This document shows, in pieces, positions 5,834 through 53,479 of a stretch of DNA of 64,000 nt. Origin of the DNA: Naegleria gruberi (Eukaryota). The translations under genes were made by a program, and so were the position numbers. The notes beneath the pieces are model-generated. The model was not told where the DNA came from, did no database searches, and saw only the letters and a program-made list of their open reading frames with translations. The stretch lies in NCBI GenBank assembly GCA_000004985.1, contig GG738865.1, one strand, 5' to 3'. Each line of letters begins with the position of its first letter. Position 1 is the stretch's first letter.

Positions 5834-7557
5834 CTACAGAATCAATTCGTGTTGCTGTGGTTGGGATGAGAGAATTTTAAATCTATCACGTTCTCTTTCC
5901 AATTCGAAAATTCTTCGTTGTAATTGTTGCTTCTCAGTTATGGAAGCTTGTTGGATGGAAGACATGCCTGTCTCTGCTTGTAGCAATTGTTCATTCAAAT
6001 CTTCAACTTGTCTCTGGACAGAATAAACCTTTGATCGATAGGCTTCCTTAATTTTCTTTGCTTTGGCAGCATACCTTTTAGCAATCTCTTTAGCAGCCAG
6101 CAGATCTTTCAATAATTTTTCCACCCTAACATTAGAATCTGTGTGTTTGTGTTTCAGCGTATCCATATCTAGTTTAATATCGGCAATGACCTTTAACAAG
6201 TGATTATTCTTATCGAGTTGATAGTCTCGTTCTTCTCTAAATGCCTGTGCTTCAGCTCTTACGCTTTCAGATTCTTTCCTCAGTCTGGCAATTTCATTAG
6301 TGAGTTCTTGAACATCGTGTTGACTTCTCTTTTCCTTTGAGAGTAAATCTTGTTTTAACTCATTCTTTTCAACTTCAAGTTGTAAATACTTTTCAGTTTC
6401 CTTTCTAAGTGCTTCATGAAGTCTCTCGTTTTCCTTAATGTGAATCTCGTAGGATTGTGTTACCAATTCTTGCTTGGCTTGTTGGAGATCTTCCACCCTC
6501 TTGTTCAATTCAGAAACCTTATTTGCCCAAATGTTTCTATCTCTCTCGTATTCTCTTTCTCTTTGAAGTTGATTGGCCTTGTAGGATGTTCGTTCTGAGG
6601 CAAACTGTTTTTCTGTTTCATCCAATTTGCTCTTTGTTGTGGTTAATTCCTTTTCGAGTTTTAAAATTTGATCGTGCATCTTGTCATTACTTCTGGTAAT
6701 TTCTTCAAGTTCTGCTTGAAGTCTTTCACATTTCTTTTGGAGTCTTTCGTGCTGTGTCTCTGCTGTTCTAACTTTGGAGACCAACTCGGCATGTTTCTGA
6801 TTATTCATGAGGTTGGATTGTTCTCTGGATGAAACAGCTTGCGCTTTTTCTTCTCTTACTTCATGTAGTTCGGAAAGTAGTTTTTTGATGCTTATTGACA
6901 TTTCTTCCTTTTCTTCTTCAAGGCGTTTTACTTGGAGAATCTCCTTAGATGTTTTCATCTGAATGTTCTGATCGTTTAATTGCATGATGAGCTCTTGAAC
7001 ACGATCTTCATAGTCACCCTTCATTTCATCAAATCTCTTCTCTGCCATTTTGAGTTTTTGTGTTAATTCATTCTTGGTTAGTTCGTATTCTCTTCTCAGA
7101 TCCGAATACATTTCACGAAATTTATCATTCTCATCGATTTCCCTCTCCAGACGATGTCTCAACTCCAATTCTTCCATTAATTTCATTTTCATTTGTTGAA
7201 GCTCTTGAGTATCCCGATCAAATTGATTTCGTAAGGACTCGAATTCCTTAGTTTTCTTTTCCAATTGATTTTTCCATCTCAAGTGTTGTTCATTGTTTTG
7301 ATTGTACAAATCCAGATATTCTCTTTTTAACTATTATTATTGTTGTGATGATGATAATTTTAATAATTATAATAATAATAAATTAATAATTTGCCAAAGT
7401 CATGATGATGTAAACAACTTCCGTGATGCTGCCTAATACAACTTACATTATCAAAATTTCTTTGGTAGGTATCATTCTCTGTTCTTAATCGCTGAAGTGA
7501 GAGTTGAACATTCCTATCGTCGCCCTCACGTACCGACGTTGAGGTTGTAGAGTGCAT
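5834..7557 (-). CDS. Coiled-coil protein, 2 exons (7557..7447 and 7330..5834; intron 7446..7331, GTAAGT...AATAATAG), about 536 aa, function unknown
   Basis: Long heptad-rich ORF (ELELRHRLEREIDENDKF..., many E/K/L/Q). Upstream ORF MHSTTSTSVREGDDRNVQLSLQRLRTENDTYQRNFDN ends in phase 0 at GTAAGT. An in-frame TAG sits immediately before exon 2, as expected for an acceptor. Confidence 0.65.
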
Positions 7558-7603
7558 TTTTTTAAACTTAACGGCTTAATATTTTTTAATGGGTTACAAT
7601 TTC

Positions 7604-7612
7604 GGCGGGAAG
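7604..7612. promoter_or_regulatory. E2F-like GC element GGCGGGAAG (TTTCGGCGGGAAG), about 50 bp upstream of coiled-coil gene ATG (7557, minus)
   Basis: GC-rich motif in AT-rich spacer. Matches E2F half-site GCGGGAA. Same motif family as at 39657 and 53812. Confidence 0.3.
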
Positions 7613-8078
7613 TTTTTTAAAATTCAAAGAAAGAGAGATTTTAATGTGAATCGTAAATCAAAATGTTTAATAATGTACTGGATATTCTATTCGTTAATTA
7701 TCATTGCACCTCAATAGCATGATTCTTAGTTTTGAGATAGTATCCAACACCCAATTCATTCTTCACCTTTTTAAGAAGCTCAAAACTTGATAAGCAGCAT
7801 AACATCTTAACAATTCATTTGATTAGAACATCTCAGCAAGAAAGTTTGCGGAAAATGGCAACTCTGAAGTTTATCCTGAACCAAGGAGATACAAAATGTC
7901 AAACACATTCATGAAAGATGCTTGACTTCAAGCTTAATGAAACCAATCAAATCTGCACTAATATTTAATATTTTGCACTCAATAAAACGTTGTTTAATTC
8001 TGTGGTTTTACTTTGCAAAATAATCTCATCACAAAATGAAAAAAAAATAATTAAAATTTATTTTTAATGCAATAAAAA

Positions 8079-8594
8079 ATGCTGAAATCATCAACCTTCC
8101 TCAGACCAATCGGTCTCGTTCACAGCCACTTTGTAGCCAAAAACATGGTGGTCAAGACTGAAAGAATGTCTCTCAGTTCTGTCATTCAACAAATGAATCA
8201 AAGACGTAATTTCTCACAAAATAACACCAACAGAGGATCATCCGGTCATCACGAACAAGAACATAAACAACACACTAAAAAAACCGAATTTGAAGAATTA
8301 GATGATGTGTTACCAGAACCACCAAAGAGAGAAGTCCTCTTGGCAAAGATTGCCGGTGCATCAGCAATGTTCTGGATTTTGTACAAAATGAGACAAGATG
8401 GTTTGATCGTATTTGGTTTGGAAAAGCCGCACTGGGAACATGCTATGGAAGATGATGAATCTGACAGAGATGATGAATACTTTGAAAATGCTCTTCAAGA
8501 AGATGAAGAATCTCTCGACCTCAAGATTGAATATCACTTGAGCAAGCCAGAATCCAACTTTGATAAGAAATTCGACATTTTAAAGTTGAAGTAA
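8079..8594 (+). CDS. Mitochondrial complex I accessory subunit NDUFB2 (AGGG)-like protein with presequence-like N-terminus
   Basis: AGASAMFWILYKMRQDGLIVFGLEKPHWEH resembles NDUFB2 [24 protein letters not shown]. Basic amphipathic N-terminus MLKSSTFLRPIGLVHSHFVAK. Acidic C-terminus. Confidence 0.45.
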   Translation: MLKSSTFLRPIGLVHSHFVAKNMVVKTERMSLSSVIQQMNQRRNFSQNNTNRGSSGHHEQEHKQHTKKTEFEELDDVLPEPPKREVLLAKIAGASAMFWILYKMRQDGLIVFGLEKPHWEHAMEDDESDRDDEYFENALQEDEESLDLKIEYHLSKPESNFDKKFDILKLK

Positions 8595-8955
8595 ATCAAT
8601 TTATTGGAACATTATCACTACATCATCATTTCCCGAGTTTAATAATTATTTAATAGGTCTCTCCTCTCACAAACAATTGCTATTTGTATTTAAAAGGGAT
8701 TTTTATCCATAGCACTCACATAAAACAAAATTCTTAATGTTAGCTTTTTAAAATTAGAACAACCATGATTAATTACATATATTAATTATATTATTATTGG
8801 TAAAACATTGATGAATATTGTATTCAATATTATATTAATAATTGAGAAGAAGGAGATGCAAGAACAATAATGCGTCCGTTCTTTTATCGAATCAAGATAA
8901 AGTGCTGCTGTCATCTTCAGTCTCTCATATCAAAAAATTAGAACAACATAACAAC

Positions 8956-10416
8956 ATGATGATGAAAAACAAAGCAGCCCTGATAGAACTTGCACAAAGT
9001 TGGGCCATCTGCAATGGATTTATCTTGAAGAGCCAACGTGGACAATCCTTCCAATCCGATCCAATACCATTCACTCTCACTCCAACAGGAATCAATAGAA
9101 AAGCCTACGAAAAGGTTGTTTCCATTGCTCCATTGTTGAATACACTCGTTGATCGTATGAGTAGAGATTCTACCTTTATCAATCAATCCCTGGAAAGTGT
9201 TGCCAAGTATGATGATTTTGTGAAACGTTTATTGGACATTTATAATGAAACCTACGAGAGGAATAAGAATGACTATCAATTAGCTGTTCATCGTTCCGAT
9301 TATATGATCCATGTGGATGGAAAGAGTGGACAGGAAATTCCTCAACAAGTTGAATTGAATACAGTTTCATCTGCTTTTGGTGCTTTGGGAGCAACAACAC
9401 ACAAATTGCACTCCTATTTGCAACAATATAGATCATGGCTTGTTCCCGAATATCCAGAACAAGAATTGGAACCAAATAATTCATTGGAAAACATTGTCAA
9501 TGTGATGAGACAGAGTCATGAAACTTTTGTTCAGGAAAATCCAAGCAATTTTGGTAGCATGCCTTACTTTATGCTTTTTGTTGTTCAGGATGGAGAACGT
9601 AATGTCGGTGATCAAAAACCATATGAGCATTTACTCTTACAAAAGTATGGAATTTTCGTTTTGAGAAGAAGTATGAAGGAATTGATTGGAAATGTTGAAC
9701 TTGTAAAGGATGAAAAGTCAAATAGACAACACTTGGTGATTGAAAAGCAATATCCTGTCAGTGTTGTTTACTTTAGATCAGGTTACACACCAGATGATTT
9801 CCCTACTGAAAATGAATGGGAAGTAAGAAGTGTTTTGGAGACTTGTACGGCAATTAAATGTCCAACTATTGGTGTTCAATTGGTTGGTACAAAGAAGATT
9901 CAACAAATCATGTTTGAAGATGCTGTTTTACAAAAGTATTTGACCAAGGAAGAGGCTCAATCAGTTAAGGAAGCATTCACTGGAATTTATTCATTGGAAG
10001 AATCAGAATCCTTGCAATACATGAGGGAAGCTTTTGAAAATCCAGACGATTATGTTTTAAAACCTCAAAGAGAAGGAGGAGGCAATTTGGTTTATGGAGA
10101 AAAATTAAAGGAATATTTGGACATTATTTTACACGACAAGTCACACACTGAATATGCCTCAATCAAGTATACTTACATTTTAATGAAAAAGATCAAACCA
10201 CAATTACACAATAAGGACATTATTAGACAAGGACAAGTTGCAGGTGGTGAATGTATTAGTGAGCTTGGTATTTATGGTATCTATCTTGGAAATGGTTCAC
10301 AAGAATTGACTAATGGAAGTGCTGGATATTTATTGAGAACCAAGTTGGCTAAATTCCAAGATGGAGGTGTTGCAAGTGGTGTTGCTTCTATGGATTCTAT
10401 TTATCTTCGTGATTAA
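8956..10416 (+). CDS. GSS: Glutathione synthetase (eukaryotic GSH synthetase family)
   Basis: Strong family motifs: RSDYMIH, ELNTVSSAFGALG, KPQREGGGNLVYGEKL, ISELGIYGIYLG, GYLLRTKLAKFQDGGVASGVASMDSIYL. First ATG in frame is at 8956 (MMMKNKAAL). Confidence 0.88.
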   Translation: MMMKNKAALIELAQSWAICNGFILKSQRGQSFQSDPIPFTLTPTGINRKAYEKVVSIAPLLNTLVDRMSRDSTFINQSLESVAKYDDFVKRLLDIYNETYERNKNDYQLAVHRSDYMIHVDGKSGQEIPQQVELNTVSSAFGALGATTHKLHSYLQQYRSWLVPEYPEQELEPNNSLENIVNVMRQSHETFVQENPSNFGSMPYFMLFVVQDGERNVGDQKPYEHLLLQKYGIFVLRRSMKELIGNVELVKDEKSNRQHLVIEKQYPVSVVYFRSGYTPDDFPTENEWEVRSVLETCTAIKCPTIGVQLVGTKKIQQIMFEDAVLQKYLTKEEAQSVKEAFTGIYSLEESESLQYMREAFENPDDYVLKPQREGGGNLVYGEKLKEYLDIILHDKSHTEYASIKYTYILMKKIKPQLHNKDIIRQGQVAGGECISELGIYGIYLGNGSQELTNGSAGYLLRTKLAKFQDGGVASGVASMDSIYLRD

Positions 10417-42660: not shown

Positions 42661-44259
42661 TTAACTTTGGTTTTCTTCGTTAGAACATGCATGTTCAGTA
42701 TAACCGCGAGAATACCAATCCTTTCTTGCCTTCTTGTGATCTTCCACAGTTCTGACCTTTCTAACAAATGGATTATATCCATCTGTAGTAATATAGTTCC
42801 ATAAAACTCCAGACCAAGAGTCCAAGTGATACATTTCCTGTACTTCTGATGAGTACTTATCATTTGAGTTGTCACCCTCTCTCTTCATACCAATAACATC
42901 CTCGAAACCATAATATTCAGGAGCAATGTGTCTCAAGAGTGGCAATTTGGTACATGGAATTCTTGGGAAATCGTGATGTTCATTATGATAACCAACATTG
43001 AACATGAACCAGTTAGCAGGTCCATAGTATGAGTATGTTTCTTGTCCAGTCTTAGTCAACCAATGTTCAGAAATAAAGTGACCAGACAATGGATGAAGAC
43101 CCAAACCAAAGAGAGTAGCAATCAAACAATAAACAAGAGCTCTATAACCCCACATCATGACCAGAACTGAATCAAAAGTCAAAGTTACAACAATATTCAA
43201 AATTTCCCACTTGTTTGGAACCTTTGGAGAGACAAGTAATGGTTTGATACCATAAATCAAACCCAAAAAGATAATGTGAAGAATTTTCATGATTGGACCT
43301 CTCACATATCTGCCTTCATACTTGGTTGTGATATCAGCATCCAAACCAGGCACACCCAAATACAAATGATGTTCACTATGATATCTATTCGAAATGAATC
43401 ATCACATTGTATTTTGATGATGATTTCAAAAACAGAGAAAGCCGCCAATAATAACGAAAGTGCGGATTAAATCGTTAATATGTTTTCAAGTGCAAATGAA
43501 ATCAATAAGCGTAATTGATTAGTTGTTGTCCGCAATTTTCGTAATAAGCGTTTGGACAAATGAACCGGTATTTAAGCGCAGGTGTTGTTTTTCATCACCG
43601 CCAATCACAGATTTTTGCAAGTCAAAAGTATAAAGCAATTGAAAAGATAATTAATAATCAAATTGAATTGAGAATGAATAACTTACCTCTTGAAGGTCAT
43701 TGCAGAAGGAATGCCCATTGATAAATTGCAAAAGATTGCAAAGTAATAATTGTGTTCTAACTTTTCAAAACACATCCTAATTAGTAGAAATGAGTCGTTG
43801 GAAAATCATCATCATCATTGCAGAGTAGTAGTATGCATATTCATGAAAATGACCATCATCACACGATTAAAACAAACCAATTATCCAATAAACTTACCCA
43901 TGTGTAATTTCATGAATAGCAACTGTCATTGATTGAACAAAGGCACCACCAATAAGCCAAGCAGTCGGAATCAGCAACCACCAACTTCTATCCTTAACCA
44001 AGTAGCAAATTAAAAAGTGGAGAAGGACGAAAAAGATGCATTGCCACTTTGTTTCTGGATCATAGCCGAACAGTTTTTCAATTTGTGGATACTTCTTTAG
44101 CATTTCATACTTTCTTCTAAGATGAGGTTCTTCCTTGTTTGTCCAGACAAAATCATTTCTATTGAGAAGGTCTGGTTCAATGGTTGAGTAAGCATCCTGC
44201 GATGGAACCTTTTCTATGGCAGGCGTTGAAGGTGTTGATGAGGTTGATGAGGCTCTCAT
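42661..44259 (-). CDS. DEGS: Sphingolipid delta4-desaturase (DEGS/DES1 family), 3 exons (44259..43898, 43776..43687, 43384..42661; introns 121 nt and 302 nt)
   Basis: AIHEITHG|G-MCFEKLEHNYYFAIFCNLSMGIPSAMTFK|RYHSEHHLYLGVPGLDADI... aligns with DEGS1 [41 protein letters not shown]. C-terminal GYHNEHHDFPRIP histidine box. Both donors are GTAAGT. Confidence 0.8.
43385..43686 (-). other. Intron 2 of desaturase gene: longest intron in window (302 nt), relatively GC-rich, carries two CCGCCAAT elements (43441..43449, 43596..43605, plus-strand text) and a GGTGATGA C-box-like motif
   Basis: Boundaries fixed by protein alignment. Other introns in the window are 37-121 nt. Confidence 0.6.
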
Positions 44260-45066: not shown

Positions 45067-48000
45067 TTATTGAAGGTTCTTAATGAATGAGTTTTCATAA
45101 GCATACCAATCTTCATCTTTGGATGCATAAGTTTCATCATCTAAATAACCAGCACCCTTGAAGGATCTATAGTATGGAATTTCACCAACAACACGTTCCT
45201 TTTCATCATACAACTTTTTAGTCCAGAACTTACTGGCCAAAGTCTTGTCCAATTTGGCACCTCTGAGTCCAATATTTTGTTTACAAATTTCCAAACAACC
45301 ACCATTCATACTAATGTTGGTTCTAATCTTTTGTCTGTATTCACCAAGCTTGGCATCCTTAGTGAAAGGTTTTGGATAGTATGACAAATGTTCTCTGAGT
45401 TCAGCAAACTCTTCACATTCATCCATGAGAGCTCCAGTTCTATCCTTACCACTCTTGCAATTGTAGTGAATTTGTTCACCAATAATAAAGGACAAGAGAA
45501 CAACTCTAACTGGAATAGCATATGGATCTCCGACTTTAACTTCATCAGATTCCATAATACCTTGATTGAATTTTTCATGTTGCTTGGAGTGGTACAAATT
45601 CTTGAGAGAACCAAACAGTTCATACATGTCTCTTTCCAAATTACAAAATTCGTAATATTCTTGCCAGTGAGGAATAGGAGGAAGTTGAGGTTGTGAAGCT
45701 CTTGCATTGGATACGCTTGTATACAAACTCTTCAAAAAATGTTGCTCCAATTCTATCAATTCGTCATAACTATTCTCCCATTTAAGGTCAATATTGTGAA
45801 TCTTATCAATCATAGAGTCCATATCGTTAACCAAGAACATAATATCTTTCAAGTAGGTAAATTCAACAGAGGTAATGTCATCAAACTTTGGCAACCATTT
45901 TTCGTTAATTCTCTTTTCCAATTCTTTTTGTTTCTTTTGCAAATCAAATTCTAAAGGAGTCAATTCTCTGATAGCAGCTGCATGTTTTTCTCTCATTACA
46001 GCATAGACATTATTAATTCTTGTCAACTTGTTGACCAATGCTTGAACATACATGTTACCATCTCTAGAGTTTGTGAAAATACCAGTAATATAATTCATGA
46101 TTGCACCTCTGATAGTATTCTTATATTCACCGAGAGCAAGCATAAATCTTTGAACCTTCTTTTCAAATTGTCTAATACCAAATTGTCTACAATTAACTGA
46201 TCTTTGAATACCAACACCACACTTGAATGTCTTGATAATAACATTGACACCAAAGTTCAAAAGACAAGGTTCATGGAAAATAATAGGCATGTCAATAGGT
46301 GGTTGTCTATCGTATAAATCTACAAGTACAGATGGTAACAAGTTATTTTGAAGTACATGATAAATAGCACCTTGATGTTCCATAACTTGTCTGTCTTCTC
46401 TGTTTTGAACAAATGAAGGAGTCAAGAGACTGATTGTAGTGAATGGAATCTTGAGTGGTTCTTGTCTTTGTTTGAGTCCTTCTAATTCTTCTCTGGTAAA
46501 TCTCTTTACATGATTTACTGCCATGGCCTTGAGCATTGTCTTGGCATTTTCAATGGCAATAGCTTGTCTTTGCTTCTTATCTTGTAACTTGTAGGCTGGG
46601 AAAGAACCTGATCTCATCATTTCTAAAATAACTCTTCCTCCCTTAAGGTAGACACTCTTGTAAGGATTAATTAGACCTTCTCTGTGTCTGTCGCGAGATG
46701 TCTTCAAGCCCTCATTAGTGAACGAATAAGAGTCAAACAATTTGTTAATTGGAATTTGAACAGAATATGAAAGGGAGGCTTCTTGTTTGTTAACTGTAAT
46801 ATCATTCTTATCGAGAGAGATATCAACTGCTCTATTTTTGACAAAGTACAATTCTTGTACCATGATTTTTCTTGGTTTGGAGCTCATAGTAAAGCCAAAT
46901 GCCAATCTAAAAGCATCAAAAACATCATTCATAGATGATTTGAAGAATGATGCCATTGATTGAAGATTTGAAACATCCTTATCAGACATTTTCATCTTGG
47001 TTTTCAATAAATTAGACATTTCCATATTAGATTCAAGCAACAATCGTACAATTTGTCTCTTGAAGGATAAAATCAAATGTTCAAACTTTTTCTTATCATT
47101 AAAATCAATTTCATCGAAAGGACTCACATAAAGCTCAGAACAGAAGTAGGTGAAAATCTTGTGGGCTTGGGAAAATCTATTGAAGGCATTCTTACCAATA
47201 TTACTGCATTCAGCTTCGATTACTCTATATTTGATATCTGGGAATGTAATTTTAACTTCTTGAATTAATTCCAAAATGTAACGTTGAGCAACAGATAGTA
47301 AAAGATCACCATAAGCTTGAAGATGATATCTTTGAGTACTCAAAAAGACATCTTCATCAATAAATCTATTAAAACTCAACTCATTTGTCTCATAACCAAG
47401 AATCTTTTGTGACTTGTCAAGTTGGAATGGCTTTGTTGTTTGTGTGGCCTCGTACAAGAGTTTTGATACAATAACCCAGAAATTAAGGGCCATTCTTCTT
47501 GGTCTAACTGAGAATTGGTTTGGATTGAGTGGAGGAGGAATGTTCTTCTTTCTTTCCTCTTCCAACATTTCTAATTCTCTTCTCTTTCTCTCTTCCTCTT
47601 CTTCTTGAAGTCTTCTCTTTCTTTCCTCTTCTTCAATTTGTTGTTGGAGATAGAGTTCATATTGGGTCCAATCTTGTGGATCTTCTGTTATTGTTACATA
47701 GTTTACAAAATCTACATTGCTTAATTTAATTCTCTCATTAAGCTTTTCCTTGTAGTCATTACATTTTTCTTCATTGCTTAAATAGGTTTCAACGAGATGC
47801 CAATAAAAGTTATTATTATTTGTTCCATCTTCAAATTCAGAAACATCAATTTCTGATTCATCATTAATCAAACGATCCAATATTACTCTTCTTCCCCTGT
47901 TGAGCCATTCATTAAATTTAATTCTAATGTTATCTTCAATTTCAGATGCTACAAAATCAGTAATTTCTGGTATTGGAGTATTGCTAACAACAGATACCCA

Positions 48001-49976
48001 TCTACTGTCAATTTTTGGAGGATTTTGGAAGTCAATATTATTGGCATTGTGAGGATCAAATGCAGTGAGTGCATATTGAATAACACTACTATATGGGAAA
48101 AATTGTTCATACTTGATAGCCAATCCAGGATCAGGTCGTTTGAAAACTTCAAATGTGAATGGATCAAGATATGGTATCAAATCATCAGTTTGGTTGACTG
48201 TCATTTTGAGATTATATTTTCCAGGGAGTGGGAAATGAACCTCAACTTCATATTCTCCATTTTGGAAGTCATTAATAACGACCTGATTCTTTAAATTGTT
48301 AATAACAACTCCTTCCTCAGAAATGAAGGAAAATTCTGGATAGAATTTATCTCCACCACGAGTACAATAATTTCCAAATTGATCTCTAGCATAGATTTTG
48401 AATTTGATTCTTTGACCTTCAAAGAATGGACCTTGCATTTGTTCGTACTCGTCTACCACTTCACAATTCTTACCATATGCTTCACCAGGCACAACCCTAA
48501 CAGGTTTAATGCTAGGATGTGTAAGTTTCAATTTACCATCCAACTTGATATCAATATTATATTTACCAATAATTTCTGGCACAAAATCAACCTTATAAAT
48601 TCCATTTCCAAGATCTGTTACTGTTCCCTGGATAGTTTCTTCTGGATCATTGTCATTTTCCTTAATTCTTGTTAGTGTTACAGTGAAAACCTCTCCACCA
48701 GTTGTAATATCATCACCATTTTGGTCTTTGGCAACTATTTCAAATGTGTTGACCTTTCCTACAATAGCAGTTTGACAACCTCTGCCTCTTATTATACATT
48801 GTTCTGGGTCTATCATTTCCAGATCGCCTTCAATTGTTATATTGTCTTGCTTTATAGGTTTGATGTCTAATTTGGCACCAACTTTTAATTTGTTGAATCT
48901 GTCCAATAGCGATGAAGCCTTGTTAACAGGTTTTTGTTGTTTTGGTGTTACTTGTTGTTCTTCATCCTCTGGTTGTTTAAAATTAAAGTTTAGCTTTATA
49001 TCCACGTTTCTTTGTTCCAACTTTTTAAATTCTTGTTCTACCCTATCAAGTTTAGATTTTGAAAACTTTAATCCAGATTTTGACAAGTCTTGTATTCTCT
49101 TAGAAGCATCAATTCTTCCTGATTTCCACAAAAAGTGAGCCAAAGCATGAATGCAGTGGACCACCTTGGTAATATTCTTCCTTTCCCATAAATCTGTTCT
49201 TATTGTTATTGAAAAGTTAATAACAAAATACTAACCTGGTGTAGAAAATTGATAAATGGAAGGGAAGTTAATCTTCTCACAACAATCTTGGAAATTGTTG
49301 ATATTATCTGTTGACATCATGAAAGCTAATTTACTTTCCAAATTAACATTCTTGTGATACTTTTTCATGGTATTCTTCTCTGTGAATACTTCTGAAAGTC
49401 TACACAATACAATACCATTACGTAATTGATCGAAAAAGTCTACATTTCTAGCCTCTGCTTTTTCAGCGTTTGATGATGAAGTTGAATAATTATAGCCTTG
49501 TTTCAAGTCTTCCGAAACATCCTCATCATCCATATCATCGAAGAAGATTTGTTCATCTAACATGTCTTCAATCCACCTCTTTGCTGTTGTAATATTAATA
49601 ATTAATAATAACATGATTAGTAACAAAAGCAATCAACATGACAAGTCACCAATTGATCATTAGTTAAATAATCATAAAATTTTCACTACTAACCTTCCTC
49701 TTGTCTTAACAAAAATTCATATGCTCTAAATTCAGTGATTGTGGCTTGAATATTGGATTTTCCTTCTTCACCAATTCCTTGAAAGGTAGGACGTTGGTAT
49801 GTTTGCCAAGCTTTGGATGCGTTCTTCATAATTTCTCTTTCGGTTGGTTCATCAGATGTTGTTGATGTTGATGTTGTAGTATTATTATTACTATTATTTG
49901 TTCCTCTATTTAAAGAAGGAACTGGAGGTCGATTATTAGATCCACCATTGGTATTAGGAGGTGGAAATCTGACCAT
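45067..49976 (-). CDS. Giant multidomain protein (about 1590 aa): IQGAP-type calponin-homology domain, filamin/ABP-type Ig repeats, long helical middle region with EEERKRR coiled coil, C-terminal inositol-polyphosphate 4-phosphatase/SopB-IpgD-like CX5R domain. 3 exons (49976..49694, 49583..49236, 49193..45067)
   Basis: CH domain spans both introns: ATITEFRAYEFLLRQEE|AKRWIEDMLDE...LRNGIVLCRL...INFPSIYQFSTP|DLWERKNITKVVHCIHALAHFLW, very close to the IQGAP CH. Filamin-like IIRGRGCQTAIVGKVNTFEIVAKDQNGDDITTGG. Active-site-like HYNCKSGKDRTGALMD. Introns GTTAGT..ACAG (110 nt) and GTTAGT..AACAG (42 nt), both phase 1. Confidence 0.7.
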
Positions 49977-50161: not shown

Positions 50162-53100
50162 TTATTGATTTTTATTGTCAAGCAAATGTTCTAGTTGGGA
50201 ACATGTTTCCTGCGCTTTTTGGGTTTCAATTTGATTTTGAGAAAGTTTGTCTTCAATTTGTTGCTTAACTTCTGGTGGAAGATTTGGATGCACTTGTTTG
50301 AGATATTTGGCTTTTACAGAGGCAAGTTGTTCAATCTTCTTTTGCCACTTTTCAATCTCCTTTTCTAATTGGAACTCATCTGGTAAAACAAGTTGAGTCA
50401 TTACTGTTCCTTGAGGAGTGGAGAATGCAGTTGCTGTAAGATAGAGTGTATGTTTGTGTTTCTTAGATTCTTCTTCAGTTATAAATTTGATTGAGGTGAA
50501 TTTGGTGAGGGTTTGAATAATCTTAATGTCATTCTCTGAAAGATTGAAAGCAGTTGTGGAAGATCCTTGATAGAAAATATAGGCAGTCAACTCGGATTTG
50601 GATGGTAATTGAAGATTTTGTTTCATAGATCTTAATTGTTGTACAATTTGGAGAATCTTGTCCATCTTTTCTGTAATTAGTTGTTTGGATGATCCAATTT
50701 CAAGAATTGAACCAATTTCATCAGCAGTGAATGAGGTTGGATAGGAACATTCCAAAATACTACTGGTTGGAATGTAGCTAGAGTTCTTATTAGACAACTT
50801 GGCATAGAGAGCATTGTTTTCTCCATTCAAAGGGCAACAATGATACAACTCTTCAGTTATGAATGGCATGTAAGGATGTAAGAGTTTTAAAACAGTAACT
50901 AAACAATAATTTAGGGTGTGGAGAGTATTTTCGATAAGTGGAGTCATTGTGTTAGAACTGTGGAGAATTGGCTTGACAATTTCTAGGTAATTATCACAGA
51001 ATTGATAGATGAAGAATTGATAAATAGAGGTACAACCATCACTAAACATAAAGTTATCAATGGAATTTCTGGTAACATCAATTGTTTCACTGAGATTGAG
51101 TAAAATCCATTGATTTTGAAGTACTTGTTGCGATTTTTCAAGACTTGCAAAGGATTTCAACAATAATTCAGACAAGTTTTCATCATTTCCTGGTACGCTA
51201 TAGTTGAATCTCTCAAAGTGGGATAAGCAAAATCTTGCAGATTGCCAAATCTTATTACACAAATGTCTATTGGATTGAGCACGCATAACATCCAAATTAA
51301 TTTGTCTTCCTTGTTGAGTGTATTGAATGAGAGTAAATCTGAGTGCATCAGTTCCACATTGAGGAATACCATTAGGGAATTCTTGTTGAACACCTTGTAA
51401 GGCTTTCTTCATTTCTTGTTTGGTAATGTTTGTATTCTTTTCAATGCCTCTCTTTAAATCTTCAAAGGTGGTTCCTTTTATCATATCAATAGGGTCAATT
51501 ACGTTACCAAGACTTTTAGACATCTTTCTGCCTTGTTTGTCTCTAACCATAGAGTGGAGGTAAATTTCATTGAAGGGTTTTTCCTTATTATCGGACAAGT
51601 AAGTGCAAAGCATGACCATTCTTGCAACCCAAAAGAAGAGAATGTCACTTCCTGTTTCCATGACAGAACTAGGATATCTGTAATCCAAGTCCTTGAGTAC
51701 ATTTTCACTTCTTGAAGGCCATCCAAAGGCTGCCAATGGATAAAGTCCAGATGAGAACCAAGTATCCAAAACGTCTTCATCTTGTTCCAATACAAAGTTA
51801 GAGAAATTTGGAACGTTCTTTTGAAGGATAGAAATGGCTTCTTCCTCCTTATGGGCTACAATCCAAATATTTTCAATGTTTGAAGAATTCTTATTGGAAT
51901 ATTCCATAATGAACGATTTTTCCTTTCTGAGTTCCTCCATTAAAGGTTCCAATTTGGAAAGGTCTCCAACCAATTTAAAGGCAGGAATTCTGTGACCCCA
52001 CCACAATTGTCTTGAAATACACCAATCATGAATATTTTCGAGCCAGTTATTCCATGTGGTCTTGTGATAGGATGGATGGATTAAAATTTCATTATTGTTG
52101 ACAAGGTCGAGGGCTTTCTTTGCCAAACTGTCACATTTAACAAACCACTGATTGAGTAACATTGGTTCGAGAATGTCCTTGGATCTTGAACAGATAGGGA
52201 GTTCCATTTCGTGATCTTGTTCAGAAATGAAAAGTTCCATATCTTTAAGTTTGTCTACTAACAATTTTCTAACAATAAATCTATTCTTACCAGAAAATTC
52301 TACTGGTACTTGATCATTCAAAGAACCATCCTTATTGAGAATGGTAATAAATTCCAAACCATGACGTTTTCCACATTCAAAATCTTCAAATGAATGAGCT
52401 GGGGTAATCTTAACAGCACCTGTACCAATTTCCATATTTACCAATTTTTCATCACAAATAATTGGTACAGCTCTCTTTGAATCGAATGGATGCAAAATGA
52501 ACTTGTTATGGAAGTTTTTGTATCTTTCATCTTCTGGATGAATGGCAACAGCAGTATCTCCAAGCATGGTTTCCAATCTTGTTGTACTGACATTAATGTA
52601 TCCAATAATTTCTGTACTACCAGGAGATGAAATAACTGGGTATTTAAAGGTGTGCATTACACCAAAGTCAAATGATTTTTCTTCACAACTTGGAACCATT
52701 ACTTTAGTCTTTTTCTTGAGTGAAATATATTCCACTTCAATATCCGAAATTGCTGTATTTAATTGAGGACACCAATTGACAAGTTTGGCATCTCTGTAAA
52801 TGAGACCATCCCTTGCTAATCTTACAAAACATTCAAGAACAGCACTTGAAAATTGAGCATCCATAGTAAAGACTTTTCTACTCCAATCAGTCATGGAACC
52901 CATAGCCTTCATTTGATTATCAATTCTATTGCCATACTCTTCCTTCCATGACCAAACTCTCTTTAAAAATTCCTCTCTTCCTAAATCGTGTCTGGTCTTT
53001 CCTTCCTCTTTAGCAATTTTCTTTTCCACAGCAACTTGTGTTGAAATACCAGCATGGTCAACACCAGGAACCCACAATACATTGTATCCATTCATCTTTT

Positions 53101-53479
53101 TATATCTACAAAGTGAGTCTTGAATAGAGGCAGTGAGAGCATGTCCAATGTGAAGACTTCCTGTCACATTAGGAGGTGGAAGTAAAATTGTATATTGTGG
53201 TTTTGTTGTTGAATCCTCTCCTTTGAATAATCCTTTTTCTTCCCACCATGAATACCAATCCTGTTCGACACGAGATGGATCAAATGATGAAGTGAGGATT
53301 CTATTCAATTTTGTTGTTGATGATTCCTCCGAAGAATTGGTTTCATCTTGTATGTTGTTATAGTGAAAATTTCTATATTGTTGTTGATGAACAGAAGAGA
53401 TTCCTAATTGTTTCATCAATCCAAATTTTTTGTTTTGATTATTTGGTGTGGCTTGTTTGATGGTAATCCTCTTTAGCAT
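50162..53479 (-). CDS. VARS: Valyl-tRNA synthetase, class I, 1105 aa, with basic presequence-like N-terminus (possible dual cytosolic/mitochondrial forms)
   Basis: PPPNVTGSLHIGHAL (HIGH), RKMSKSLGNVIDP (KMSKS), editing-domain and anticodon-binding regions, C-terminal coiled coil. Single exon. Confidence 0.9.
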   Translation of the reverse strand: MLKRITIKQATPNNQNKKFGLMKQLGISSVHQQQYRNFHYNNIQDETNSSEESSTTKLNRILTSSFDPSRVEQDWYSWWEEKGLFKGEDSTTKPQYTILLPPPNVTGSLHIGHALTASIQDSLCRYKKMNGYNVLWVPGVDHAGISTQVAVEKKIAKEEGKTRHDLGREEFLKRVWSWKEEYGNRIDNQMKAMGSMTDWSRKVFTMDAQFSSAVLECFVRLARDGLIYRDAKLVNWCPQLNTAISDIEVEYISLKKKTKVMVPSCEEKSFDFGVMHTFKYPVISSPGSTEIIGYINVSTTRLETMLGDTAVAIHPEDERYKNFHNKFILHPFDSKRAVPIICDEKLVNMEIGTGAVKITPAHSFEDFECGKRHGLEFITILNKDGSLNDQVPVEFSGKNRFIVRKLLVDKLKDMELFISEQDHEMELPICSRSKDILEPMLLNQWFVKCDSLAKKALDLVNNNEILIHPSYHKTTWNNWLENIHDWCISRQLWWGHRIPAFKLVGDLSKLEPLMEELRKEKSFIMEYSNKNSSNIENIWIVAHKEEEAISILQKNVPNFSNFVLEQDEDVLDTWFSSGLYPLAAFGWPSRSENVLKDLDYRYPSSVMETGSDILFFWVARMVMLCTYLSDNKEKPFNEIYLHSMVRDKQGRKMSKSLGNVIDPIDMIKGTTFEDLKRGIEKNTNITKQEMKKALQGVQQEFPNGIPQCGTDALRFTLIQYTQQGRQINLDVMRAQSNRHLCNKIWQSARFCLSHFERFNYSVPGNDENLSELLLKSFASLEKSQQVLQNQWILLNLSETIDVTRNSIDNFMFSDGCTSIYQFFIYQFCDNYLEIVKPILHSSNTMTPLIENTLHTLNYCLVTVLKLLHPYMPFITEELYHCCPLNGENNALYAKLSNKNSSYIPTSSILECSYPTSFTADEIGSILEIGSSKQLITEKMDKILQIVQQLRSMKQNLQLPSKSELTAYIFYQGSSTTAFNLSENDIKIIQTLTKFTSIKFITEEESKKHKHTLYLTATAFSTPQGTVMTQLVLPDEFQLEKEIEKWQKKIEQLASVKAKYLKQVHPNLPPEVKQQIEDKLSQNQIETQKAQETCSQLEHLLDNKNQ

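Follow-up and report, generated by a model that had tools for sequence, protein, structure and literature searches.

A stretch of 64,000 nucleotides of contig GG738865.1 from Naegleria gruberi (GenBank assembly GCA_000004985.1), hereafter called the window, encodes on its minus strand, between positions 45067 and 49976, a 1585-residue protein in which an IQGAP-type calponin-homology (CH) domain and two filamin-type immunoglobulin (Ig) repeats are joined to a C-terminal enzyme of the SopB/IpgD family with intact catalytic residues. We consider it fairly probable that the protein is an endogenous amoeba phosphoinositide phosphatase, possibly also a phosphotransferase, that is tethered to an actin-binding scaffold and has phosphatidylinositol 4,5-bisphosphate [PI(4,5)P2] as its likeliest substrate. 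Enzymes of the SopB/IpgD family have been described only as virulence effectors with which bacteria subvert the phosphoinositides of their hosts (PMC13540636; 10.1101/2021.05.25.445663). Consistent with the first-pass annotation of this DNA, which knew of no such protein, our search of a full-text library, which also covered Naegleria phosphoinositide 4-phosphatases and the accession numbers, found no description of a eukaryotic SopB/IpgD homolog, of this protein or of its orthologs.

A SopB/IpgD-family enzyme at the C-terminus

The C-terminal half of the protein contained the following features.

45070..47538, minus strand: complete SopB-like C-terminal region, residues 763-1585 (823 residues)
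46180..46926, minus strand: SopB-homologous N-lobe, residues ~967-1215, with the RSGSFP, LLTP and NFGVN blocks; second matched stretch in the profile searches, with invariant columns
46243..46257, minus strand: NFGVN motif, residues 1190-1194; NxGxN block common to bacterial SopB-family proteins
45589..46179, minus strand: helical, lineage-specific insertion that separates NFGVN block and P-loop, residues 1216-1412; recognized by motif spacing and by long helices in the AlphaFold2 (AF2) model, 90% identical to N. lovaniensis
45145..45588, minus strand: catalytic C-lobe, residues 1413-1560; Pfam IpgD 6.6e-15, NCBIfam NF011905 3.7e-19, SopB (PDB 8jzl) 1.1e-9
45433..45459, minus strand: P-loop CKSGKDRTG with the CX5R active site, C1456 and R1462; invariant in alignments A1-A3, aligned to SopB C460 and R466
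45244..45255, minus strand: K1524-L-D-K1527, aligned with SopB K525 and K528; K1524 invariant in alignment A3

Profile searches assigned this region to the SopB/IpgD family. The Pfam IpgD profile (PF05925) scored 55 bits against a cut-off of 22 and was matched at positions 455-555 of 580 only. A profile made from the last 823 residues of the N. gruberi protein and three orthologs (profile A1) was compared with all PDB sequences, and SopB was the only match (1.3e-15). The match consisted of two separate stretches, one in the N-lobe and one in the P-loop lobe, at positions 302-444 and 670-799 of profile A1, the first being weak when taken alone (i-Evalue 0.28). Among 1.84 billion representative proteins, profile A1 detected 538 relatives. 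Fifteen of these had E < 1e-30 and were of the same long type; below a large score gap were about 500 SopB/IpgD-type proteins that were typically matched on both lobes, including the "inositol phosphate phosphatase SopB" of the cyanobacterium Oxynema. Homology extended past the P-loop into an N-lobe with RSGSFP (residue 1071), LLTP (1133) and NFGVN (1190) blocks, all of which were common to the bacterial-type proteins, and the region was predicted to adopt the SopB fold. The possibility that the resemblance was confined to the active-site motif was rejected on the basis of the two-lobe homology and the fold match, which span nearly all of SopB.

The residues expected to carry out catalysis were conserved. 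The P-loop nonapeptide CKSGKDRTG is that of SopB and the form seen most often in the family; its first eight residues (CKSGKDRT) were present in 118 of the 153 family members surveyed. The HMMER alignment equated SopB C460, R466, K525 and K528 with C1456, R1462, K1524 and K1527, respectively, the SopB numbering being derived from the position of the catalytic cysteine in the 8jzl chain. The HMMER alignment was used for these correspondences; the MAFFT alignment (A2) misplaced a single bacterial-type sequence (P0025) in the middle of the region. The second lysine was a glutamine in one family member (P0003).

The enzyme differs from SopB (SigD) of Salmonella and IpgD of Shigella (PF05925; PDB 8jzl) in several respects. 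It is a eukaryotic gene product rather than a type III secreted effector, and its overall identity to SopB is only about 19%. A helical insertion of about 150-200 residues separates the NFGVN block from the P-loop. The spacing between the NxGxN and CX5R motifs was 261-268 residues in nearly all heterolobosean-type members (305 in P0029, a distant relative described below) compared to a median of 114 (range 92-169) in bacterial-type proteins. About 760 residues of CH, filamin, alpha/beta and ER/K-helix scaffold precede the enzyme, and the CH-filamin scaffold takes the place of the N-terminal secretion, chaperone-binding and Cdc42-binding region of SopB. The NCBIfam equivalog profile NF011905 was matched at positions 439-537 of 565 with 68.7 bits, far under its cut-off of 615, which sets the protein apart from equivalogs of the secreted effector.

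The first-pass annotation had described the C-terminus as SopB/IpgD- or INPP4-like. The first of these assignments was borne out by profile, P-loop and fold, and INPP4 shares the fold class as a remoter relative. Inositol polyphosphate 4-phosphatases INPP4A/B and the IP4P domain of P-Rex1/2 (PDB 7syf) had no detectable sequence similarity to the N. gruberi protein (the PDB profile search matched SopB only), their structural score was much below that of SopB, and their accompanying domains are different. The bacterial effectors SidF and SidP of Legionella (PDB 4fye, 4fyf, and 4jza) were 11-12% identical and gave no sequence-level match.

An IQGAP-type CH domain and filamin repeats at the N-terminus

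Five features were recognized upstream of the enzyme.

49120..49736, minus strand: IQGAP/Rng2-type CH domain, residues ~81-235 (the span includes both introns); Pfam CH 6.6e-9, PDB Rng2 4.3e-15, IQGAP1 7e-14
48490..48813, minus strand: filamin-type Ig repeat 1, residues 338-445; Pfam Filamin, AF2 beta-sandwich, Foldseek
48142..48468, minus strand: filamin-type Ig repeat 2, residues 453-561; Pfam, PDB sequence match, AF2, Foldseek
47686..48126, minus strand: small alpha/beta domain, residues 567-713; AF2 secondary structure with a predicted local distance difference test score (pLDDT) of ~80-90, 75% identity to N. lovaniensis
47545..47667, minus strand: one long helix with a high content of E, R, and K, residues 720-760; helical in the AF2 model (positions 421-461 of the modeled fragment), composition scan

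The CH domain is of the IQGAP type, with PDB sequence matches to the CH domains of Schizosaccharomyces pombe Rng2 and human IQGAP1 (4e-15 to 2e-12). The Filamin profile (PF00630) was matched in two stretches (2.8e-17), and the repeats are of the filamin/ABP280 type. The gelation factor (ABP-120) of Dictyostelium was detected both by PDB sequence (1wlh, 4.9e-9) and as the top Foldseek match (rod domains 5-6, 1qfh, 2.6e-14). The protein shares with filamin and gelation factor the filamin-type Ig repeats and the logic of a CH region followed by Ig repeats, but differs in having one IQGAP-type CH domain in place of the tandem CH1-CH2 actin-binding domain, no more than two repeats, and a C-terminal enzyme. 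The alpha/beta domain had no match in the Pfam search and was conserved in the orthologs. As modeled, the ER/K-rich helix probably acts as a stiff spacer or forms a coiled coil. These results, together with the IpgD match, agree with the proposal of the first-pass annotation that a CX5R phosphoinositide-phosphatase module is fused, within one gene, to filamin repeats and a CH domain of the IQGAP type. The peptides on which that proposal was based were all found in the spliced product: EEAKRWIEDML at residue 93, LRNGIVLCRL, VVHCIHALAHFLW at residue 221, and HYNCKSGKDRTGALMD with its cysteine at residue 1456.

The protein is deposited for N. gruberi NEG-M (XP_002677784.1; EFC45040.1; UniProt D2VDP8) under the name "ras GTPase-activating-like protein IQGAP3." It resembles IQGAP1-3, Rng2 and the heterolobosean IQGAPs in the type of its CH domain, and its N-terminal CH-filamin order is that of the N. 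fowleri IQGAP-like protein P0008. In contrast to the IQGAP family, its C-terminal half is a SopB-like enzyme. Neither the RasGAP-related domain (PF00616) nor RasGAP_C (PF03836) was detected in a Pfam scan at E up to 1, and no strict IQ motif was found, the sole loose match falling within the SopB-like insertion. An identity as an IQGAP was dropped, since the protein has neither a RasGAP domain nor an IQ motif, and the absence of RasGAP, RasGAP_C and IQ motif makes the database name wrong.

Gene structure and conservation of the fusion

The coding region was reconstructed as follows.

45067..49976, minus strand: whole coding region from start to stop codon; reconstruction and exact match to XP_002677784.1 / D2VDP8
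49694..49976, minus strand: exon 1, low-complexity N-terminus and first CH helix, up to ...LLRQEE; Rng2 and IQGAP1 alignments (YDYLCRvdEAKkWIE) cross the junction
49584..49693, minus strand: intron 1, 110 nt, GT..AG
49236..49583, minus strand: exon 2, body of the CH domain including an acidic/Ser-rich loop; reconstruction and PDB sequence alignments
49194..49235, minus strand: intron 2, 42 nt, GT..AG; DLWERKNITKVVHCIHAL, aligned to Rng2 and IQGAP1, spans the junction

Splicing of three minus-strand exons (49976-49694, 49583-49236, and 49193-45067; ATG at 49976, stop codon included) gave the 1585-residue product, which is identical residue for residue to the deposited protein; the length of 1590 residues given by the first-pass annotation was slightly too high. 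Its exon junctions (49694/49583 and 49236/49193) are those of the public model, and both introns, of 110 and 42 nt, have GT..AG borders and keep the reading frame. The alignments to the Rng2 and IQGAP1 CH domains pass both junctions without interruption, which supports the splicing independently of the gene predictor. Exon 3 is 4.1 kb long and holds everything from residue 212 onward, from the last helix of the CH domain through the two filamin repeats to the end of the SopB-like region; the fusion of filamin repeats to the SopB-like enzyme therefore requires no splicing. Intron 2 (GTTAGT...AACAG) is very short, even by the standards of compact protist genomes.

At least four species besides N. 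gruberi have full-length proteins of the same domain organization, including N. lovaniensis (81% identity), N. fowleri (same 90% cluster), Willaertia magna (70%), and a EukProt species (31% identity, 97% coverage). Proteins with filamin repeats and an IpgD domain were also found in Acrasis kona and in metagenome contigs, where the models were N-terminally truncated or partial. The fusion is conserved across Heterolobosea and so is not a one-off. Between N. gruberi and N. lovaniensis, the SopB-like lobes and the insertion were 88-90% identical, the CH domain 82%, and the remainder 62-80%; that the SopB-like lobes are the best conserved argues for selection on catalysis. The catalytic cysteine and arginine were kept in every complete family member examined, and CKSGKDRTG was intact in all but P0029.

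P0029 is encoded on a 43.8-kb, AT-rich, eukaryote-like contig (26.6% GC) from SRR23962323. Its CH, Ig-like and SopB-like regions lie in one uninterrupted open reading frame (ORF) of 4356 nt (L081, positions 6001-10356, plus strand), so the fusion no longer depends on intron prediction. Its P-loop, CKTGLSRTG, retains the cysteine and arginine and has LS in place of KD; its specificity may be altered. The first-pass annotation had named three observations that would speak against its proposal, namely CH exons belonging to a separate gene, a lack of profile similarity to CX5R phosphatases, and loss of the catalytic cysteine or arginine. None was made: CH domain and phosphatase share the P0029 reading frame, the SopB/IpgD profile similarity was significant, and both residues were kept.

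The N. fowleri and N. lovaniensis orthologs are named only "hypothetical" or "CH domain-containing." A cluster of heterolobosean-type metagenome proteins from JGI/IMG (P0026) is labeled "rubrerythrin" or "MazG-type NTP pyrophosphatase" by its source, and these labels look like annotation errors.

Origin of the two halves

The N-terminal half has relatives among the heterolobosean IQGAP paralogs. These proteins (P0004-P0009 and P0011, from Willaertia, N. fowleri and N. lovaniensis) contain a CH domain, several filamin Ig repeats, RasGAP and RasGAP_C. The first ~550 residues of the N. gruberi protein (CH, linker and two filamin repeats) were collinear with P0008 (BLASTP E 4e-43). This collinearity points to a module swap in which a SopB-like domain replaced RasGAP. 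From the sequences, recombination of an IQGAP-type head with a SopB-like tail would be the simplest history, and heterolobosean IQGAP-like proteins are the likely donors of the N-terminal module. To our knowledge, animal IQGAPs lack filamin Ig repeats between the CH and RasGAP domains.

Outside Heterolobosea, the named relatives of the C-terminal half were bacterial. A C-lobe alignment that included bacterial-type sequences was used to scan one genome per bacterial or archaeal species, and 341 genomes contained a relative of the catalytic lobe. The 80 genomes listed were all bacterial and mostly from host-associated or symbiotic lineages, including Symbiopectobacterium, Succinivibrionaceae, Porisulfidus, Spongiihabitans, Endozoicomonas, Desulfovibrio piger, Sutterella, Chromobacterium, Verrucomicrobia and Kiritimatiellae. 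Among the matches listed, the best bacterial identity was 35-43% over the most conserved (catalytic) lobe. The 823-residue ortholog profile found nothing in the bacterial and archaeal genomes, the peptide patterns used being specific to Heterolobosea. Every named relative outside Heterolobosea in two broad protein searches was bacterial; the C-lobe protein search returned mostly short metagenomic fragments and is a weak survey for other eukaryotic members.

An acquisition of the enzyme by recent horizontal gene transfer from a bacterium was dismissed given the best bacterial identity and the family-wide, lineage-specific insertion. That the best bacterial matches listed are only 35-43% identical suggests that the acquisition is old, and the heterolobosean proteins appear from their sequences to be a separate, old branch with its own insertion.

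Proposed function and alternatives

We propose the following sequence of events for the N. gruberi protein. By analogy with the CH domains of IQGAP1 and Rng2, its CH domain probably anchors the protein to cortical F-actin. The segments between this domain and the enzyme (Ig repeats, alpha/beta domain and ER/K helix) would serve as spacers, possibly also as dimerization or partner-binding sites, and the SopB-like domain would act on the inner leaflet of the plasma membrane adjoining that actin. There, if the enzyme acts like other members of the SopB/IpgD family, C1456 would most likely attack the 4-phosphate of PI(4,5)P2 to form a phospho-intermediate and yield phosphatidylinositol 5-phosphate. 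In SopB, either water or the 3-OH of a second phosphoinositide molecule can resolve the Cys460-phosphate intermediate (PMC13540636; see also preprint 10.1101/2021.05.25.445663), and K525 and K528 selectively affect the phosphotransferase output (2026 review, PMC13540636). Both lysines are present in the N. gruberi protein and, if the phosphotransferase route has been kept, phosphate would be passed to the 3-OH to give phosphatidylinositol 3,4-bisphosphate [PI(3,4)P2]. Local loss of PI(4,5)P2 would release membrane-cortex linkers and allow actin to be remodeled at pseudopods, phagocytic cups or pinosomes. Lowered PI(4,5)P2 would also be expected to promote ruffle, cup or vesicle dynamics, as SopB does in host cells.

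Several points weigh against this proposal. We infer actin binding, substrate, reaction and cellular role, as well as enzymatic activity itself, from sequence and analogy. Not every single CH domain binds actin. Both Pfam and NCBIfam matches were restricted to the C-lobe, and the insertion of about 150-200 residues beside the active site could alter substrate access or specificity. The alignments behind the AF2 models were shallow (8 and 6 sequences), and the active-site loops had a pLDDT below 50. SidF and SidP, which are structural relatives, are described as 3-phosphatases, so positional specificity is unreadable from the fold.

This last point bears on the alternative that the same enzyme and scaffold act on a different substrate or position. 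The enzyme would then be a 3-phosphatase like SidF and SidP, a PI(3,4)P2 4-phosphatase like INPP4, or a soluble inositol-polyphosphate phosphatase, and, instead of consuming PI(4,5)P2, it would end signals of the phosphoinositide 3-kinase type at the actin cortex. We judge this alternative unlikely. A quite improbable alternative is that the SopB-like region is a non-catalytic, lipid- or protein-binding module and the protein purely a cortical scaffold. Such a non-catalytic binding role is generally assigned to the INPP4-like domain of P-Rex proteins. However, CKSGKDRTG was intact in N. gruberi and in all other complete members except P0029, which still has the cysteine and arginine, and no part of the protein is better conserved than the catalytic lobes. 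That gene prediction merged two neighboring genes, one with the CH-filamin exons and one with the SopB-like ORF, is very unlikely and already largely refuted: both introns are predicted only and one is unusually short (42 nt), but residue 212 onward lies in a single 4.1-kb exon that makes the filamin-SopB fusion splice-free, the Rng2 and IQGAP1 CH alignments pass both junctions without gaps, P0029 has all three regions in one uninterrupted ORF, and at least four other species have full-length orthologs with the same order.

If the tethered phosphatase also retains phosphotransferase activity, a broader proposal can be made. The kinase- and ATP-independent conversion of PI(4,5)P2 to PI(3,4)P2 and phosphatidylinositol 3,4,5-trisphosphate has so far been described only for Salmonella SopB and Shigella IpgD. 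This conversion could be a native heterolobosean pathway, carried out by an enzyme hard-wired to cortical actin, a proposal that we regard as tentative and rather doubtful. If it is correct, the bacterial effectors and the amoebal enzyme share an old origin, and SopB-type effectors may have been derived from, or honed against, protist hosts that use the same chemistry.

Significance

The sequence and its automatic domain matches are already public, and the individual components and the enzyme family are known. New are an endogenous eukaryotic member of the SopB/IpgD family, the fact that it is covalently joined to an actin-binding scaffold of the IQGAP type, and its lineage-specific insertion. 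That free-living and pathogenic amoebae, N. fowleri among them, have a conserved member that appears catalytically intact points to a eukaryote using SopB/IpgD chemistry for its own cell biology, and the built-in actin-binding head suggests the site of action. The protein offers a tractable test of phosphotransferase-type synthesis of 3-phosphoinositides outside infection. It is also a concrete example of domain shuffling, in which the RasGAP tail behind an IQGAP head was replaced by a lipid phosphatase, and its description corrects the misleading name "IQGAP3," which orthologs are liable to inherit. In N. fowleri, the enzyme is without a close human counterpart and may govern cortex-membrane dynamics; its practical interest is speculative.

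Neighboring genes

The gene lies close behind an intron-less valyl-tRNA synthetase gene (50162-53479, minus strand), whose ORF at 50165-53479 encodes a 1105-residue product identical to XP_002677785.1 of N. gruberi NEG-M. Only 186 bp on the same strand separate the end of this upstream gene from the start codon of the fusion gene, which leaves a very short intergenic and promoter region. Downstream, an ORF at 43897-44259 (minus strand) matches the N-terminal Lipid_DES domain of sphingolipid delta4-desaturase (1.2e-18) and is probably the first exon of a DEGS-like gene.

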